DNA of 64,000 nucleotides from Candidatus Hodarchaeota archaeon (GTDB taxonomy: Archaea > Asgardarchaeota > Lokiarchaeia > Sigyniarchaeales > SOKP01), in assembly GCA_048887225.1 (NCBI GenBank), contig JBHLJY010000001.1, positions 372,371 to 436,370 on the forward strand. The letters run 5' to 3'. Under the pieces are notes generated by a model that was not told the DNA's origin, ran no database searches, and was given only the letters and a program-made list of their open reading frames with translations. Each line of letters begins with the position of its first letter. Position 1 is the stretch's first letter. The translations under genes and the position numbers were made by a program. Shown piece after piece: positions 1,911 to 9,539 of this stretch.

Positions 1911-2402
1911 ATGGATGATATTGATAGGAATATTATTCAAATAATACAAGAGAATTCAAATCTTACACATACCGAAATTGCAAAAAAAGTTAATAGGAGT
2001 CAACCTACAGTTGGAATGCGAATCCGAAGGCTTGAAAAAGCTGGCATTTTGAAGTTTCAAGCAGGAATAAATTTAAAAACTGCTGATATACTTCTTGCAA
2101 GAGCTGAAATTGTAACAAATAATCCTAAAGAAATAGAACGTATTGTAAAAAATTGTCCTTTTATGATTAATGCATTTCGATTAAGTGGAAATTCAAATAT
2201 TAGCGTTTTTATCGTCGGTTTTAAAATGAGCGAAATTGATAATATTATAAATTGCCATTTTAGAAAGAACCATTATGTAGAGAACATTAGTTTAGATATT
2301 ATTCTTGATATAATAAATGATTTTGTCTTACCTTTCAAGATTAATATCGACTATTGCGAAATTTGTAAAAAGGGGCAATGTTTTTCTAATTTTAAAGAAT
2401 AA
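1911..2402 (+). CDS. Lrp/AsnC family transcriptional regulator
   Basis: MDDIDRNII..THTEIAKKVNRSQPTVGMRIRRLEKAG HTH; C-terminal CEIC..C; start may be ATA at 1893 after GGTGA. Confidence 0.9.
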   Translation: MDDIDRNIIQIIQENSNLTHTEIAKKVNRSQPTVGMRIRRLEKAGILKFQAGINLKTADILLARAEIVTNNPKEIERIVKNCPFMINAFRLSGNSNISVFIVGFKMSEIDNIINCHFRKNHYVENISLDIILDIINDFVLPFKINIDYCEICKKGQCFSNFKE

Positions 2403-2557
2403 ATTATAAAATTCTTTTAATTAAATTATAAATTATTTATGGGAAAAAAAGCCACTATTCTTACATTTAGAGATTAAAATTAAACCTGGGAACTCATAAT
2501 AATTAGTAAAAAATTAAAATTAAATAATATAGATAAACAAATTAATACTAACAAATT

Positions 2558-2572
2558 AAAAAGGTATAAATA
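2558..2572 (+). promoter_or_regulatory. BRE-TATA promoter of trp leader/operon
   Basis: AAAAAGG followed by TATAAATA (2565-2572), ~55 nt upstream of leader ATG. Confidence 0.55.
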
Positions 2573-2626
2573 ACATTTATTAATTATTTTTAATAATATT
2601 CAAAATCAAGTTAATGGAAAAGAAAA

Positions 2627-2698
2627 ATGTTTAGAAAAAATTTAAACCTAAAAGTTCCCTCATCAACTTGGTTTTGGGTTTGGTGTTGGCACGCATAG
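2627..2698 (+). CDS. Trp-rich leader peptide (trpL-like), MFRKNLNLKVPSSTWFWVWCWHA
   Basis: Manual translation ATG 2627 to TAG 2696-2698; TGG codons at 2669, 2675, 2681, 2687; directly upstream of trpD. Confidence 0.85.
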   Translation: MFRKNLNLKVPSSTWFWVWCWHA

Positions 2699-2749
2699 AG
2701 CGTGCGCAATGACTTTATCTATTTAAGAATTTCTTGCTTTTTTCTCTTT
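2684..2749 (+). terminator. Putative attenuator: GC hairpin plus U-rich tract
   Basis: GCACGC(2689-94)-ATAGA-GCGTGC(2700-05), extendable by TTG/CAA; leader stop lies in the loop; TTTCTTGCTTTTTTCTCTTT at 2730-2749. Confidence 0.6.
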
Positions 2750-2872
2750 ATAATTCCTAAAGATTTTAGTTTGAATTATGAAGATTAAAATTGTTTTTTA
2801 AAATATTAGAAATTCCAATTCTATAAAGATTTTAAAATGTTATGTTAAAAAAAAGAAATAAATTGTATAAAA

Positions 2873-3937
2873 ATGTCTGAAGAAAAAATAGTTGAAGGTT
2901 TAAAAAAAATAAGTCAAAATGTTAGCTTGACAATTGAAGAAGCAGAAAATATAATGAGAGATATAATGTCTGGTAAAGTGCAAGACGCTCAATTAGGAGC
3001 ATTTTTAACAGGATTAGCTATGAAGGGAGAGTCTATTGAGGAAATAACAGGCTTTGCTCTAATAATGAGAGAATTTGCAAACCGAATTCAACCTAAAGTA
3101 AACGGCGAGTTATTAGACACATGTGGAACTGGAGGAGATAAAATCAAAACATTTAATATAAGTACAATTTCAGCGTTAGTAGTGGCAGGGGCGGGAGTTC
3201 CTGTAGCAAAACATGGGAATCGTGCTGTAACGAGTAAATGTGGAAGTGCTGATTTGTTAGAGGGATTAGGGGTGAAAATTGATTTACCTCCTGAAGAGGT
3301 TAAGACGTGTATTGAAGATGTAGGGATTGGATTTATGTTTGCGCCTCTATTTCATCCAGCGATGATGTATGCTATGCCTACTAGAAGAGCATTAAAATTA
3401 AGAACAGTATTCAATATACTTGGTCCTTTAACAAATCCCGCTAATGCGAAGTATCATACTTTAGGGGTTTTTGATAAGAGTTTAGCTCCGATTATGGCAA
3501 AAGTTCTCGGAAGCGGTTTAGGCGCAAAACATGTTTATACGATTCATAACTCTTGTGGCATTGATGAATTAGCACCTGTGGGAATTAATTATATAACAGA
3601 ATTTAACAATGGAAATATTGAAACTTATGCTTTGACAAATAAAGATTTTGGAATTGAAGATTGCAATATAAATGATATTTTAGCAGGTAAATCTTTACAG
3701 GAGAATTTAGAAATTGCAGTTAGAATTTTGAAAAATGAACTCAAGGGTTCAAAATTTGATACTGTCTTAATGAATTCAGCTTTAGCCCTTACAAGTGCTG
3801 GTATAGCAAGTGGTATTAAGGAAGGTGTAATACTCGCAAAAAACGCAGTAGAATCTGGAGCTGCTCATAAAAAACTTGAAGATTTAATTAATATATCGGG
3901 CGGAAACCAAGCAAAACTAAACAATTTATTGAAATAG
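2873..3937 (+). CDS. trpD: Anthranilate phosphoribosyltransferase
   Basis: DTCGTGGD, FNIST, KHGNRAVTSKCGSAD motifs. Confidence 0.97.
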   Translation: MSEEKIVEGLKKISQNVSLTIEEAENIMRDIMSGKVQDAQLGAFLTGLAMKGESIEEITGFALIMREFANRIQPKVNGELLDTCGTGGDKIKTFNISTISALVVAGAGVPVAKHGNRAVTSKCGSADLLEGLGVKIDLPPEEVKTCIEDVGIGFMFAPLFHPAMMYAMPTRRALKLRTVFNILGPLTNPANAKYHTLGVFDKSLAPIMAKVLGSGLGAKHVYTIHNSCGIDELAPVGINYITEFNNGNIETYALTNKDFGIEDCNINDILAGKSLQENLEIAVRILKNELKGSKFDTVLMNSALALTSAGIASGIKEGVILAKNAVESGAAHKKLEDLINISGGNQAKLNNLLK

Positions 3938-3938
3938 C

Positions 3939-4745
3939 ATGGAAGGAATGATATCAAATAAAATAAAGGAAATAGTAGAACAACGGCGAAAATCTATTGA
4001 TAAGGATAGAAATTTTAAGTTCACATTAGGAGAGAAGGTGCATAAAGATAATCGACCAACTCTTAGTGAATCTATTGAAAAAGAGTCCGGGATCTCAATT
4101 ATTTCTGAAATCAAGCCAGCTTCGCCAACTCTCGGTAAAATACGTAAAGAATTAGATATAAAAAAGATCGCAAAAGAAATGGAAAGTTCAGGTGTTGTTG
4201 GTTTAAGTGTTTTAACAGAACCTAATTATTTCGATGGTTCATATGAGAATTTGAGACTTGCGATAGAGAACACAAAAATACCATGTTTAATGAAAGACTT
4301 TGTTGTAGATCCTGTTCAAAATATAATTGCGTCTCAGTTGGGCGCAACAAATATATTGATAATTAATTCTATTTGTGATTTAGAAGAAAACTATCACTCT
4401 GCTGTAGATCATGGCCTGGAACCGTTAATAGAAATTCACGAGGTTGAAGAATTACAGGACATTAAGCATTTATTTGATATTGGGTTGAAACCGAAATTAA
4501 TAGGAGTTAATAACCGAAATCTGAAAACGCTTGAAATTAATCTTAATACTTCAAAAGAAATTATTCCCAAATTAAAAGCGGAATTTGGGAATGAAATTGT
4601 TATTGTAAGTGAAAGTGGTGTAAACACGATTGACGACATTAATTTTCTTTTAGAATATCAAGCTGATGCATTCTTAATTGGATCTTCTATAATGCAATCA
4701 GAGAATATAAAAGAAAAAATTTTTTCATTGAGAGGTGTAAATTGA
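3939..4745 (+). CDS. trpC: Indole-3-glycerol phosphate synthase
   Basis: EIKPASP, SVLTEPNYFDGS, KDF, GVNNRNL, SESG. Confidence 0.95.
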   Translation: MEGMISNKIKEIVEQRRKSIDKDRNFKFTLGEKVHKDNRPTLSESIEKESGISIISEIKPASPTLGKIRKELDIKKIAKEMESSGVVGLSVLTEPNYFDGSYENLRLAIENTKIPCLMKDFVVDPVQNIIASQLGATNILIINSICDLEENYHSAVDHGLEPLIEIHEVEELQDIKHLFDIGLKPKLIGVNNRNLKTLEINLNTSKEIIPKLKAEFGNEIVIVSESGVNTIDDINFLLEYQADAFLIGSSIMQSENIKEKIFSLRGVN

Positions 4746-5392
4746 TGGAGTACATTAAAGTTTGTGGCTTAAGAGAAAGTGAACACATTAAATTATGTAT
4801 AGATAATGATGCTAATGCTGTGGGCTTCATTTACAACGTTCCTAGTTCACCGAGGAATTTAGAAAAACCTGAATTATTAAACCTTTTAAAAGGTATTCCT
4901 AAGAAATTATTAACTGTTGTTGTATCTAAACCTAAAGATATCATGGAATTAGAAAATATAATGAATGAAATAGATGTTAATTTATATCAAATTCACAATA
5001 ATTTTGAAGATACTGAAATTGATGATATTCCAACTGATTTAAAAGAAAAAATTGTTTTAGCATTAAAAGTAAATCCTTCCAATAAAAGTAATGTAATTAA
5101 AAAAATAAACAAATATCATGACCAGTTTTATGCATTCTTAATTGATAATAGTGAAGGTCATGGTACTGAATTTAATTTCGATATCGCTAATGATATCATA
5201 AATAATACCGAAGGAGCGAGAATAATAATCGCTGGAGGTATAAATATTAATAATATTGAAAAGATAATTAGAGATTTAAACCCTTTTGGAATCGATGTGA
5301 GTAGTTCTTTAGAATCCAAAAAAGGGGTTAAAGAGCCATTAAAAATTCAAAATTTTTTAAATAAAATAAACGAAATTAAGAAAGAGTTGTGA
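4745..5392 (+). CDS. trpF: Phosphoribosylanthranilate isomerase
   Basis: [23 protein letters not shown]. Confidence 0.95.
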
Positions 5393-5399
5393 GAGAGAC

Positions 5400-6602
5400 A
5401 TGAAATATAGTGAAAAATATCCCAATGAGTGCGGCAAATTTGGGGATTTCGGAGGGATATTTGCTCCAGAAGTTCTCATGCCAGCGCTAACTGAGCTTGC
5501 TGAAGCTTTTGAAAAATATAGAAATGACTTAAGTTTTAAAAATGAATTTTATCAGATTCTCGAATCATATGGAGGGCGTCCAACACCCTTATTCTATGCT
5601 AAAAAATACAGTGAAGATATAGGATGCAAAGTGTATCTGAAAAGAGAGGATTTAGTACATGGTGGAGCTCATAAATTAAATAATGTAATAGGACAGGCTT
5701 TATTAGCGAAAAAAATGGGAAAAACAAAATTGGTTGCTGAGACTGGCGCTGGACAACATGGATTCGCGACAGCTATTGCTGGTGCTTATTTCGGCATGGA
5801 AACAAAAGTATTTATGGGAGAAGTTGATATTGTTAGGCAAGCGTATAACGTCTATCGAATGCAGCTTCTCGGAGCTGAAGTAATACCCGTAAGCACGGGT
5901 TCCAGAACACTAAAGGATGCAATTAATGATGGACTTAGATATTGGATCACCAATGTTAGAGACACTCACTATTTAATGGGAAGCGTTGTCGGTCCACATC
6001 CCTATCCGCTATTAGTTAGAGAATTCCAAAGAATTATTGGTATTGAAACTAAGAAGCAAATAATAGAATTAGAGGGACGATTACCTAATGCCATTGTTGC
6101 GTGTATAGGTGGTGGAAGTAATGCCATTGGTATAATGTATGATTTCATTGAAAATGAAAATGTCCAGTTAATTGGAGTTGAGGCGGCCGGAGAGGGATTA
6201 GAAACAGGAAAACATTCAATAGCATTAGGATTAGGTCGAAGAGGTGTTTTACATGGATCATTAATGTATTTATTACAAAATGAATATGGTAATATATTGG
6301 AGACTCATTCTATAAGTGCGGGACTAGATTATCCCGGTGTAGGTCCTGAACATTGTTTCTTAAAAGAATTAACTCGCCTTAGAGTGGAAGCCGCAACCGA
6401 CAAAGAGACTTTAGACGCTTTTCAAAAATTATCAGTCTTAGAAGGTATCATTCCAGCATTAGAATCTTCGCATGCCCTTGCATGTCTGGAAAGAATTAAG
6501 GGTGAGTTTAATAAGGATGATATTGTAATAATTAATTTATCTGGCTCAGGATCTAAAGATCTAGACATAATTAAACAGCATATGGAGTTTAAAGTAAAAT
6601 GA
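5400..6602 (+). CDS. trpB: Tryptophan synthase beta chain (TrpB1 type)
   Basis: [15 protein letters not shown] (PLP lysine), [23 protein letters not shown]. Confidence 0.97.
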
Positions 6603-7438
6603 ATGATTCAAATAGAATTTTGAACCTTTTTAATGATAAGGAAGTAATAAACGAAAAATGTTTTATGCCTTTTCTAGTATGTGGAGATCCTTCAATTGAG
6701 CAGTTCATATCAATGGTTAAAAAGATCGATCCATATATAGATATCCTTGAATTAGGAGTGCCATTTAGCGATCCAATTGCCGATGGTCCCACCGTTCAGG
6801 AGGCAAATATGAGGGCATTTGAAGCGGGAATCAACACAAAAGTAGCTCTTGATACAATCAAGAGAATCAGAACATTTTTTAACAAACCGATTGTTATTTT
6901 AACTTATTATAACATCTTAATCCAAGGATCAGAGACAATCGAAAGTTCTTTGGATAATACCTTAAAATTATGTAAGGAAAGTGGTATAGATGGAATTGTT
7001 ATCGCTGATCTCCCAATTGAAGAAGCAGGATTAGCGTTGAAATATTGTAAAAAACATGACATATCGCTTATATTTTTAATTGCTCCAACAACTACAGACG
7101 ATAGATTAGAAAAAATCTTAAAAGAAGCAAGAGGATTTGTCTATTTAATATCAATCTTAGGTGTTACTGGGGCTCGAGAAAAAGTCGCACAAATCACGAA
7201 AGAAACGATTAAAAGAGTAAAAGAAAAGATCAAATCTAAAATACCAATATTCTTGGGATTTGGTATATCTAAACCTGAGCACGCTTCCACTCTAGTGGAA
7301 CTAGGAGCTGATGGTATTATTATTGGTTCGGCAATAATAGACGTCATTAAGAGAAATTTAAGTGATTTTAATAAAATGGAGCAAGAATTAGTTGAATTTG
7401 TATCAAGTATAAAAAATGCGATAAAGAGGTCGAGTTAA
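6599..7438 (+). CDS. trpA: Tryptophan synthase alpha chain
   Basis: [29 protein letters not shown]. Confidence 0.97.
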
Positions 7439-7440
7439 CT

Positions 7441-8937
7441 ATGGAATTTGATATACATATAGAAAAAATTGGTCATTTGGATAATATTTTTAGTTTTTAT
7501 AAATATTTAGTTAAGAAATATGATTTAAAAAAACATGTTCTATTAGAATCTGCTTCGGAAAACACGAAGGAAACCCTTTACAGCTTTATAGCGTTAGAAC
7601 CCGATTATATGCTGGAAATCAATGAAGATAAATATAAAATTTTCGATATCACTACTGAGCGAGGGGAAAATATTAATGATTACGTAGAATCTAAAGATAT
7701 TTCGGAAGAAAGGCCGCATAATCCACTGCCATTTAAGGACAATGTTGAATATAACATGGTCGCCCTTGATACTCTAAGTTCTCTTACGCCATATTCAAAT
7801 CTGCCTTTCACGGAGTTATTTCCAAGAAATATTTTCTACGGCGGAATGTTAGGTTATATAGGATATGATGTTGTTGCCCCATATGTAGGTTATAAATCTA
7901 CTAGTGAATTTTCTGATATTTTAATGGGATTATATACAAAAGTGCTTGTTTACTCTCATGAATCTAACTTATTATTTATGATCGATAATAGTATCGATGA
8001 TTACTCCCGAGATAAAGAAATTCGTTATCAGTTGAGTTTATTCAAGAGAAATAACAGTTCCGCCGAAAAGAAGGAAATTCCCTTGGATATCGAAGATATT
8101 GATGAATCTGGGTTTAGATCTAATACGTCCAAATCCGCTCACGAGAGAATGGTTGAAAAAACTAAAGAATATATATATGCAGGCGATATAATACAAGCAG
8201 TTATTTCCCGAAGATTATATACTGAGAGTAAGATTGACCCTATGGCTATTTATGAGGTTCTACGGGTTTTAAATCCTTCACAATATATGTATAACTTAAA
8301 TTTTGATGATATTAAAATCATAGGGAGTAGCCCTGAAGCGCTGATTTCTAAGAATAAAGACGTTCTTAATACTGTTCCGATTGCTGGTACAATAAGGAGG
8401 GGCAAGACTCCAGAAGAAGACCTTAAATTGGAAAAAGAATTACTTAATGATCCCAAGGAGCAAGCCGAACATCTCCAATTGGTGGATCTTGGGAGAAATG
8501 ACCTTGCTAAAGTTTCATATCCTGGTTCTGTCGAAACTTATGAATTTATGATAATTCAAAAATATCAAAAAGTTCAGCATATTGTAAGTAAAGTTAGAAG
8601 TAGGACACCTTTAGACGGCTACGAAGTTTTGAAGAGCGTTTTCCCTGCTGGGACGCTCTCTGGTGCGCCTAAACTGAGGGCTATGCAAATAATACAAGAA
8701 TTAGAAACAGAATCGAGGGGCCCCTATGGTGGTGGTGTGGGATATTTCTCGTTTAATGGTGATATGGCGTTTGCCATAGCCATCAGGACTCTATTTGGAA
8801 TGGACGGGACATATTTTGCGCAAGCGGGAGGTGGCATTGTTTCCGATAGCCAGCCTCACGAAGAATACATAGAAACTTACAATAAACTATATAGCGTTCT
8901 AAAATCAATAAAAATAGCGGAGGCCAGAGATAAATGA
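7441..8937 (+). CDS. trpE: Anthranilate synthase component I
   Basis: LLES, GSSPE, PIAGT, AEH..LVDLGRND, FPAGTLSGAPK. Confidence 0.95.
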   Translation: MEFDIHIEKIGHLDNIFSFYKYLVKKYDLKKHVLLESASENTKETLYSFIALEPDYMLEINEDKYKIFDITTERGENINDYVESKDISEERPHNPLPFKDNVEYNMVALDTLSSLTPYSNLPFTELFPRNIFYGGMLGYIGYDVVAPYVGYKSTSEFSDILMGLYTKVLVYSHESNLLFMIDNSIDDYSRDKEIRYQLSLFKRNNSSAEKKEIPLDIEDIDESGFRSNTSKSAHERMVEKTKEYIYAGDIIQAVISRRLYTESKIDPMAIYEVLRVLNPSQYMYNLNFDDIKIIGSSPEALISKNKDVLNTVPIAGTIRRGKTPEEDLKLEKELLNDPKEQAEHLQLVDLGRNDLAKVSYPGSVETYEFMIIQKYQKVQHIVSKVRSRTPLDGYEVLKSVFPAGTLSGAPKLRAMQIIQELETESRGPYGGGVGYFSFNGDMAFAIAIRTLFGMDGTYFAQAGGGIVSDSQPHEEYIETYNKLYSVLKSIKIAEARDK

Positions 8938-9539
8938 AAATTTTATTTATTAACAACTACGACAGTTTTGTGTACAATTTGGTGAATTATTTCTGCCAAG
9001 TAGCACCAGATTCAAATATAATCGTTGAGGATAACAATATCCCAGTTGATAAAGTCAAGAATATGAATATTGATAAGATTGTTATATCTCCTGGTCCAGG
9101 ACATCCTAAGTACGATACAGGCACAGTAATACCCATCATTAAAGAATTTTATTCTAAATTACCAATATTAGGAGTTTGTCTAGGACATCAAGCGCTAGTA
9201 GAAGCATTTGGAGAATTGGAACATCCCGATAATGACATCGAATATGTGGGACTGGCGAAAGTTGGTCCTATGCATGGAAAAATCTCAAAAATATTCCATG
9301 ATCAAGAAACTATTTTTAAAGATATACAAAATCCTCTAATGGGCGTAAGATATCACTCTTTAGCTGCTAAATCAGATTTATTGTCTCAAGATTTAAAAAT
9401 CAGCGCTACTGCAGACGATGGCACTATAATGGGCGTTCGTCACAAACATTACTGTATCGAGGGTATTCAATTTCATCCAGAATCCATTAAAATGAAGCCT
9501 CATGGAATTACAATATTGAAAAACTTTTTAAAACTATAA
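8934..9539 (+). CDS. trpG: Anthranilate synthase component II (glutamine amidotransferase)
   Basis: NNYDSF, SPGPG, GVCLGHQ, RYHSL, QFHPES. Confidence 0.96.
   Translation: MKILFINNYDSFVYNLVNYFCQVAPDSNIIVEDNNIPVDKVKNMNIDKIVISPGPGHPKYDTGTVIPIIKEFYSKLPILGVCLGHQALVEAFGELEHPDNDIEYVGLAKVGPMHGKISKIFHDQETIFKDIQNPLMGVRYHSLAAKSDLLSQDLKISATADDGTIMGVRHKHYCIEGIQFHPESIKMKPHGITILKNFLKL

Follow-up and report, generated by a model that had tools for sequence, protein, structure and literature searches.

A conserved tryptophan-codon leader precedes the trp operon of an Asgard archaeon and probably acts as a ribosome-read sensor

The trp operon and its leader

The window, i.e. the whole stretch of 64,000 nucleotides that was analysed, carries a trp operon on the plus strand at positions 2873-9539, for which the ORF coordinates and the Pfam match of each ORF give the gene order trpD-trpC-trpF-trpB-trpA-trpE-trpG. 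The operon is preceded by a leader ORF (2627-2698, plus strand), recognized from the sequence, from a rarity scan and from its conservation. It runs from an ATG at 2627 through 23 sense codons to a TAG at 2696-2698 and encodes MFRKNLNLKVPSSTWFWVWCWHA. Four of seven consecutive codons in this upstream ORF (uORF) are TGG (2669-2671, 2675-2677, 2681-2683 and 2687-2689), and a spacer of 174 nt separates its stop codon from the trpD ATG at 2873. A Trp-rich leader ORF with four TGG codons, 174 nt before trpDCFBAEG, had been described in a first-pass annotation of this DNA, and all of its coordinates agree with the sequence and the Pfam matches.

A candidate BRE/TATA element was read from the sequence at 2558-2572 (plus strand), with TATAAATA at 2565-2572 and an A-rich, BRE-like stretch just 5' of it. 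This TATA match, located in very AT-rich DNA, would place the transcript start near 2595-2598, and a start at this position would give the uORF a 5'UTR of approximately 30 nt. TATA-like strings are also present inside the spacer between the uORF and trpD. At the aligned promoter position, a TATA-like block occurs in six leaders of the window's lineage (group A), and a conserved ATATAAATAT occurs in ten leaders of the same family (group B). The Shine-Dalgarno sequence of the uORF is weak (GGA), despite a 16S rRNA 3' end of CCUCCU. A six-codon mini-ORF in another frame (ATG GAA AAG AAA AAT GTT TAG; 2615-2635, plus strand) overlaps the leader start and is probably non-functional, because its ATG is ACG in relative L002. 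Directly 5' of the leader promoter, a gene with Pfam matches to Lrp/AsnC-type helix-turn-helix regulators is located at 1911-2402 (plus strand). A synteny check did not find such a gene beside the trp leader in relatives, and it was therefore rejected as a conserved partner of the leader.

A scan of the genome of the window (3.27 Mb, 30.5% GC) yielded 3768 short intergenic ATG ORFs, none of which apart from the leader has four Trp codons in eight. A relaxed genome-wide scan yielded no second convincing Trp leader. The nearest TrpD relatives are encoded by metagenome-assembled genomes labelled Promethearchaeota/Promethearchaeia (Asgard, formerly Lokiarchaeota). All 17 relatives with upstream DNA have a Trp-rich uORF 150-510 nt before trpD, which starts with ATG except in L016 (TTG); examples of the peptides are MATENNCFWSWQWPWRWQ, ...TWFWAWRWRA and ...TWPWHWPLPA. 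An equivalent uORF was found at 12 of 12 Promethearchaeota trpD loci of a public genome collection and, with both sets pooled, at 23 of 23 distinct Promethearchaeia trpD loci with upstream DNA, relatives that are not independent samples. The collection of upstream regions of Asgard trp operons had been proposed in the first-pass annotation, which named orthologous loci without a Trp-rich uORF as evidence against its reading; every related trpD locus examined has one. Further families were sampled from 150 genomes of the phylum, counting only loci with trpD as the first gene. Trp-run uORFs were detected at four of four loci in three of these families, ending 54-153 nt upstream of trpD, with the peptide endings ...LWRSWWWI, ...PWWHWF and ...TWFCWLFWYW. 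Among 66 non-Asgard archaeal trpD loci, none had a uORF with a Trp run next to the stop codon within 2 kb.

The spacer from the leader to the first gene is always approximately 150-260 nt long, and a small gene intervenes where the uORF and trpD are more than 400 nt apart. This gene of 85-99 amino acids (...LGPEKxxTAxFIAENY...) lies between leader and trpD at L005:1242-1499 and L032:1700-1999, and also in L006, L008, L009 and L034. It matches no Pfam family and was not found in the genome of the window.

Conserved helices in the leader RNA

An RNAalifold consensus of the six group A leaders contains two helices, S0 and P1. Helix S0 pairs the 5'UTR with Trp codons 1-2: its 5' strand, CAAAAUCAAGU, is located at 2601-2611, and its 3' strand, ACUUGGUUUUG, at 2666-2676, where folding and RNAalifold place it over the whole of Trp codon 1 and the first positions of Trp codon 2. 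Hairpin P1 (2682-2713, plus strand) was identified by folding, RNAalifold and an arm-swap permutation. Its core is formed by GCACGC (2689-2694) and GCGTGC (2700-2705), which enclose a 5-nt loop, AUAGA, containing the stop codon. A hairpin at 2689-2705 with the stop codon in its loop had already been noted from the sequence; it is present, and constitutes the core of the larger P1. The 5' arm of P1 (2682-2694) begins within Trp codon 3, runs through the Cys codon, Trp codon 4 and the His codon, and reaches into the Ala codon; the 3' arm extends from 2700 to 2713.

In group A, 92.6% of the cells of the whole structure were paired, compared with 28-48% in slid controls, and S0 was paired in 91.7% of its cells; only three pairs had changed on both sides. 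The group B leaders have a helix between the 5'UTR and the segment following P1, the hairpin P1 itself, and a further hairpin, P3, approximately 50 nt before the first gene. Here 89.8% of cells were paired compared with 35-50% in slid controls, and ten pairs showed compensatory changes, a number reached by 0 of 500 shuffles. The P1-equivalent helix is among those with compensatory changes. Covarying hairpins at related trp loci, which had been suggested as a check on the proposed attenuator, are present, with ten such pairs in group B and only three in group A.

Across 20 leaders, pairing of the last 10 nt before the stop codon is better with the post-stop segment of the same leader than with segments taken from the others (permutation p = 0.0004). 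The stability of the stop-codon hairpin is modest relative to dinucleotide shuffles, with a mean z of -0.87 and 4 of 22 leaders below -2. Because folding energies are unremarkable, we base the case for P1 on conservation and arm matching rather than on energy. When no ribosome is bound, each of the four UGG codons is predicted to lie in or directly beside a helix, and a ribosome positioned on these codons would therefore have to open both S0 and P1. The conserved helices thus support the earlier suggestion that the 5' arm of the hairpin, which consists of the last codons of the leader, would be covered and melted by a ribosome on the Trp codons.

A conserved hairpin with the loop UUCCAAU is found approximately 50 nt before the first gene (columns 208-241 of alignment A2). 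Its counterpart in the window is the conserved element UUAGAAAUUCCAAU at 2806-2819, which is kept in L001-L003 and L032 and resembles the P3 loop of group B. Within the UUCCAAU loop, CCA equals the Trp anticodon, with complementarity both to the UUGG in the Trp run and to an AUUGG that follows P1.

Leaders for other amino acids in the same genome

The first-pass annotation had also suggested a search for analogous leaders at other biosynthetic operons, and conserved Leu, Ile and Phe leaders were found at cognate genes. The genome-wide short-ORF scan detected a Leu leader, MKRFQKNFNFKVKNLISQNSPYRLLDLLLLLH, which ends in LLDLLLLLH and has its stop codon 93 nt before leuA, encoding 2-isopropylmalate synthase (G000 contig C11, locus L111:1-1956, minus strand). 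A Leu-rich uORF is conserved at approximately 20 of 26 related leuA loci, and in nearly all of these the stop codon is 91-99 nt from the start of the gene. The Leu leaders have a long hairpin that begins at the stop codon and has covarying arms (GCCUUCU...AGGAAGGC). The same scan revealed that a second LeuA/CimA-like synthase gene is preceded, at a distance of 106 nt, by an Ile leader, MKKIIPINVIGIIAIIGII (contig C3, locus L117:1-1933, minus strand). This leader is conserved at 17 of 25 related loci, where Ile-rich uORFs occur approximately 100 nt before the LeuA/CimA-like gene at a nearly fixed distance from stop codon to gene. A Phe leader with a TTG start, ...DSFFFDFFILPRE, precedes pheS-pheT-pheA (CM_2+PDT); it was identified from the sequence and from relatives (contig C2, locus L152:3937-4176, minus strand), and is conserved at 11 of 25 related loci. 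The leader ends in four codons that make up the 5' arm of a 10-bp hairpin, the loop of which holds the stop codon and a U6 tract. The short-ORF scan further detected an Ala/Ile/Val-rich uORF, ...YIAADAAAAAVVL, 165 nt before one of two paralogues of a class-IV (IlvE-like) aminotransferase (contig C4, locus L116:1036-1443, minus strand). Similar uORFs are present only at the three closest orthologues of this ilvE paralogue.

Other homopolymer-rich short ORFs (His-, Thr-, Phe- and Ile-rich) lie before unrelated genes, which encode a hexapeptide transferase, a protein without Pfam match, ThiF and a thiolase; they were taken as chance and rejected, and represent the chance background of such a scan. 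The strongest argument for these leader frames being read by ribosomes as sensors is that leader composition matches the pathway at four or five loci, and the Leu-, Ile- and Phe-rich leaders before their cognate genes argue strongly for amino acids being sensed by ribosomes.

Sensing of tryptophan and possible outputs

From these analyses, we consider it probable that the leader is read by ribosomes and acts in cis as a Trp sensor of the trp operon. A transcript initiated near 2596 would carry the 23-codon ORF with four UGG codons just before its stop. In the closed state, as indicated by conservation, S0 would pair the 5'UTR with the first and second Trp codons, and P1 would pair the segment from the third and fourth Trp codons through the His and Ala codons with the post-stop segment. 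When Trp is plentiful, the ribosome would reach the UAG and depart, the leader would close, and expression of the trp genes would be low. When charged tRNA-Trp is scarce, the ribosome would stall on the UGG run and keep S0 and P1 open, with more full-length trpDCFBAEG mRNA as the presumed consequence.

The first-pass annotation had proposed a ribosome-coupled trp attenuator with a terminator formed by the hairpin and a U-rich tract. The cognate-codon sensor in this proposal is borne out by the uORF, the helices and the parallel leaders; the terminator is not. The U-rich tract itself is present at 2730-2749 (15 T in 20), followed by a second tract, U6, at 2794-2799. The first tract lies 28 nt from P1, and tracts of five or more T within 100 nt of the stop codon are not enriched, occurring in 13 of 22 leaders compared with 57% of background windows. 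For tracts of six or more T, the values are 9 of 22 leaders and 33% of background windows. A dense tract (15 T of 20) is found in 17% of 5' regions, and among the leaders only in the genus of the window. A conserved U-tract terminator was therefore rejected, the tracts being neither enriched nor conserved. A consensus scan for terminator-like sites, i.e. a GC-rich 3:4 hairpin followed by a U-run, gave none in 2300-3000, and a bacterial-type terminator was rejected as well. The same applies to a mutually exclusive 2:3 antiterminator: the 3' arm of P1 pairs with its own spacer at -6.5 kcal/mol at best, compared with a mean of -11.1 with foreign spacers, and the complementarity of arm and spacer over 19 loci was not significant (permutation p = 0.13). 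Since nothing conserved is available for the freed 3' arm of P1 to pair with instead, the four-segment topology of bacterial attenuators is absent.

The untranslated spacer (2714-2872, plus strand) is U-rich and A-poor as judged by its T-minus-A skew, which after P1 is positive in 16 of 16 family-level leaders (mean 0.158, compared with 0.004 in the background, sd 0.133). Archaeal polymerases terminate at oligo-U and via aCPSF1/FttA (PMC8716108, PMC11616081, PMC13681488), and the latter is reported to recognise U-tracts (PMC8716108, PMC11616081). The genome encodes aCPSF1/FttA (aCPSF1 equivalog match, 873 bits). Based on the composition of the spacer, these modes of termination and the presence of the aCPSF1 gene, we tentatively favour a conditional, premature formation of 3' ends within the U-rich spacer of 174 nt, through oligo-U and/or the aCPSF1/FttA nuclease and in place of a bacterial hairpin terminator, as the output of the leader. 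No particular output mechanism reaches a level at which we would call it probable. With the aCPSF1/FttA gene present, shielding of the transcript from this nuclease, as first suggested for the stalled ribosome, is possible.

By stalling, a ribosome loses its coupling to the polymerase, and according to current models of FttA this should favour termination. Stalling should thus help FttA, and this problem of sign counts against an output by 3'-end formation. A single oligo-U mechanism common to all leaders is unlikely, because the Leu leaders show a depletion of U-tracts (present in 4 of 18). As a broader proposal, which we advance with reserve, Promethearchaeia may use a set of amino-acid-specific, ribosome-read leaders (Trp, Leu, Ile, Phe and probably Ala/branched-chain) with an archaeal output that does without the bacterial terminator hairpin, for example through RNA decay, or through a stalled ribosome that gates 3'-end formation dependent on aCPSF1/FttA or oligo-U.

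The same sensor, i.e. stalling on UGG codons, could also act through a post-transcriptional output in which the mRNA is protected from decay or initiation at trpD is altered. We regard this as somewhat unlikely, and as the most serious of the alternatives. It is consistent with the lack of a conserved terminator-type signal, with the Leu leaders, which combine a long hairpin at the stop codon with almost no U-tracts, and with a second beta-CASP nuclease of approximately 437 amino acids encoded in the genome. In the version that concerns decay, the stalled ribosome would block 5'-to-3' or endonucleolytic decay, according to the '5' stabiliser' logic of ermC, in which a stalled ribosome protects the mRNA. 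This version has the right sign and needs no alternative RNA fold; however, the base-paired 5' end formed by S0 would itself protect the RNA in the closed state, which gives the wrong sign. The version that concerns translation initiation is contradicted by the modelled opening energy of the trpD start (-14..+4), which in the window is 1.25 kcal/mol without a ribosome and 1.34 kcal/mol with a ribosome stalled or at the stop codon. The corresponding means over 14 loci are 3.55 without a ribosome, 3.93 at the stop codon and 3.4-3.65 for stalling on the Trp codons. The trpD start region is thus open in every modelled state, and occlusion of the trpD start, as in a translational attenuator, was rejected since the opening energy is unaffected by the modelled position of the ribosome.

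A leader bound by a protein or an RNA, comparable to that of TRAP, or controlled by a repressor, in which the UGG repeats and helices would matter and the open frame would be incidental, is in our opinion very improbable. TRAP in Bacillus binds (G/U)AG repeats. In the leader studied here, UGG triplets recur with a period of 6 nt in a highly structured segment, and an Lrp/AsnC-type gene is located just upstream (1911-2402). Across the leaders, 30 of 36 Arg codons that follow the last Trp are CGN, compared with the AGR that is usual in the genome and predominates in the trp genes. These CGN codons, which fit a GC-rich 5' arm of P1, suggest that the leaders are under some nucleotide-level constraint as well. 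However, the TRAP gene (PF02081) was not found in the 98%-complete genome, using a search for which a B. subtilis control was positive. The Lrp gene is not syntenic in relatives, and a TGTACA box of the TrpY type is absent from 2300-3100. Moreover, binding to UGG cannot account for the Leu, Ile and Phe leaders at cognate genes. Decoding of the frame is supported by several properties of the 22 uORFs. The ATG (TTG in L016), the frame and the stop codon are kept in all loci, and TGG counts are 75:6:3 for the uORF frame compared with the other two frames. The last Trp codon is 1-4 codons, mostly 2, from the stop, whereas the intervening codons are freely variable (F, V, C, Q, P, A, S, I, R), and the length of the uORF varies as well (13-35 codons). 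Finally, the Trp codons are kept in groups A and B alike, although they pair with different segments in the two groups.

Least probable of all is a small Trp-rich peptide acting in trans, for which bacterial leader peptides such as peTrpL provide a precedent (PMC7298713), or a chance ORF in AT-rich DNA, where short ORFs are plentiful (3768 in the intergenic DNA of the genome): the peptide is conserved only in the Trp run and the last two codons and its length varies across loci, the uORF is always placed before trp genes, and a feature found about once in 3768 such ORFs is repeated at every orthologous locus.

Comparison with known leaders

Leader-peptide attenuation is a textbook bacterial mechanism, which depends on ribosomes following the polymerase. 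The reading of the Asgard leader as a ribosome-read sensor brings it closest to trpL of Escherichia coli and Salmonella (RF00513). Each trp operon is immediately preceded by a short ORF whose Trp codons lie near its stop, and the TrpL peptide of Escherichia coli ends in WWRTS, compared with W-R/H-A in the Asgard leaders. In both, the regulatory codons are in the 5' arm of a hairpin (1:2), which a ribosome awaiting Trp-tRNA opens or would open. The Asgard leader differs from trpL in having neither a 2:3 antiterminator partner nor a GC-rich 3:4 hairpin abutting a U-run, in the extra helix that ties the 5'UTR to the first Trp codons, in its long spacer (174 nt), and in its archaeal host, whose polymerase terminates at oligo-U or via aCPSF1/FttA without a hairpin. 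The Rfam model Trp_leader (RF00513) gave no match at E up to 10. For T-box or other Rfam families, there were only four unrelated matches at chance level (E 1.9-9.3).

In E. coli, tnaC responds to free Trp, and the operon that it induces is catabolic. For the Asgard leader, the codon content points to the sensing of charged tRNA, and the operon is biosynthetic. The tnaC/Rho system is similar in that a ribosome is, or would be, held near the end of a Trp-related leader peptide ahead of a long unstructured spacer, and in its use of a termination factor that requires nascent RNA to be free; in the Asgard archaeon, aCPSF1/FttA would be its counterpart (PMC11616081). Two features expected of factor-dependent attenuation are present here, namely an encoded aCPSF1 and an unstructured U-rich spacer, with the U-rich, A-poor composition shared by 16 of 16 family-level leaders. 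Cognate-codon uORFs without a classical terminator are known from mycobacteria, where polycysteine short ORFs (the 'Cys ribulon') alter translation initiation downstream (bioRxiv 10.1101/834739). As in the Cys ribulon, several operons each have their own sensory uORF, through which ribosomes would coordinate a regulon. In contrast to the mycobacterial system, none of the modelled states shows structure at the trpD start, the Asgard uORFs are not leaderless, and each Asgard leader reads a different amino acid.

A full-text literature search found no published description of leader-peptide attenuation in archaea or Asgard archaea, the matches being bacterial or unrelated. The sensor resembles the bacterial one and the host domain is new; the output mechanism is very probably new as well. 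If the proposed reading is true, it would mean that the closest prokaryotic relatives of eukaryotes exploit transcription-translation coupling for regulation, through a mechanism so far undescribed in any domain, and would show that ribosomes can steer RNA polymerase without hairpin terminators. Conserved cognate-codon leaders in Asgard archaea would then provide a natural and testable read-out of ribosome-polymerase coupling. They could be used in annotating the biosynthetic regulons of uncultured archaea, and as amino-acid-responsive parts for archaeal genetics.

Control of an archaeal trp operon in response to Trp has a parallel in Methanothermobacter, where the TrpY protein acts on TGTACA boxes at the promoter. 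TrpY is a protein repressor, unlike the proposed leader, and no TGTACA operator (TrpY/TRP-box) is present at the trp promoter of the window (2300-3100). In other Asgard families (L229-L234), the trp operon begins with trpE, and a TGTACA pair beside a TTTAAATA box has the appearance of a TrpY-type operator. Located 3' of these TGTACA boxes are a GGAGG and then a uORF that starts with GTG and contains one Trp codon, MRxx(L/V)W....
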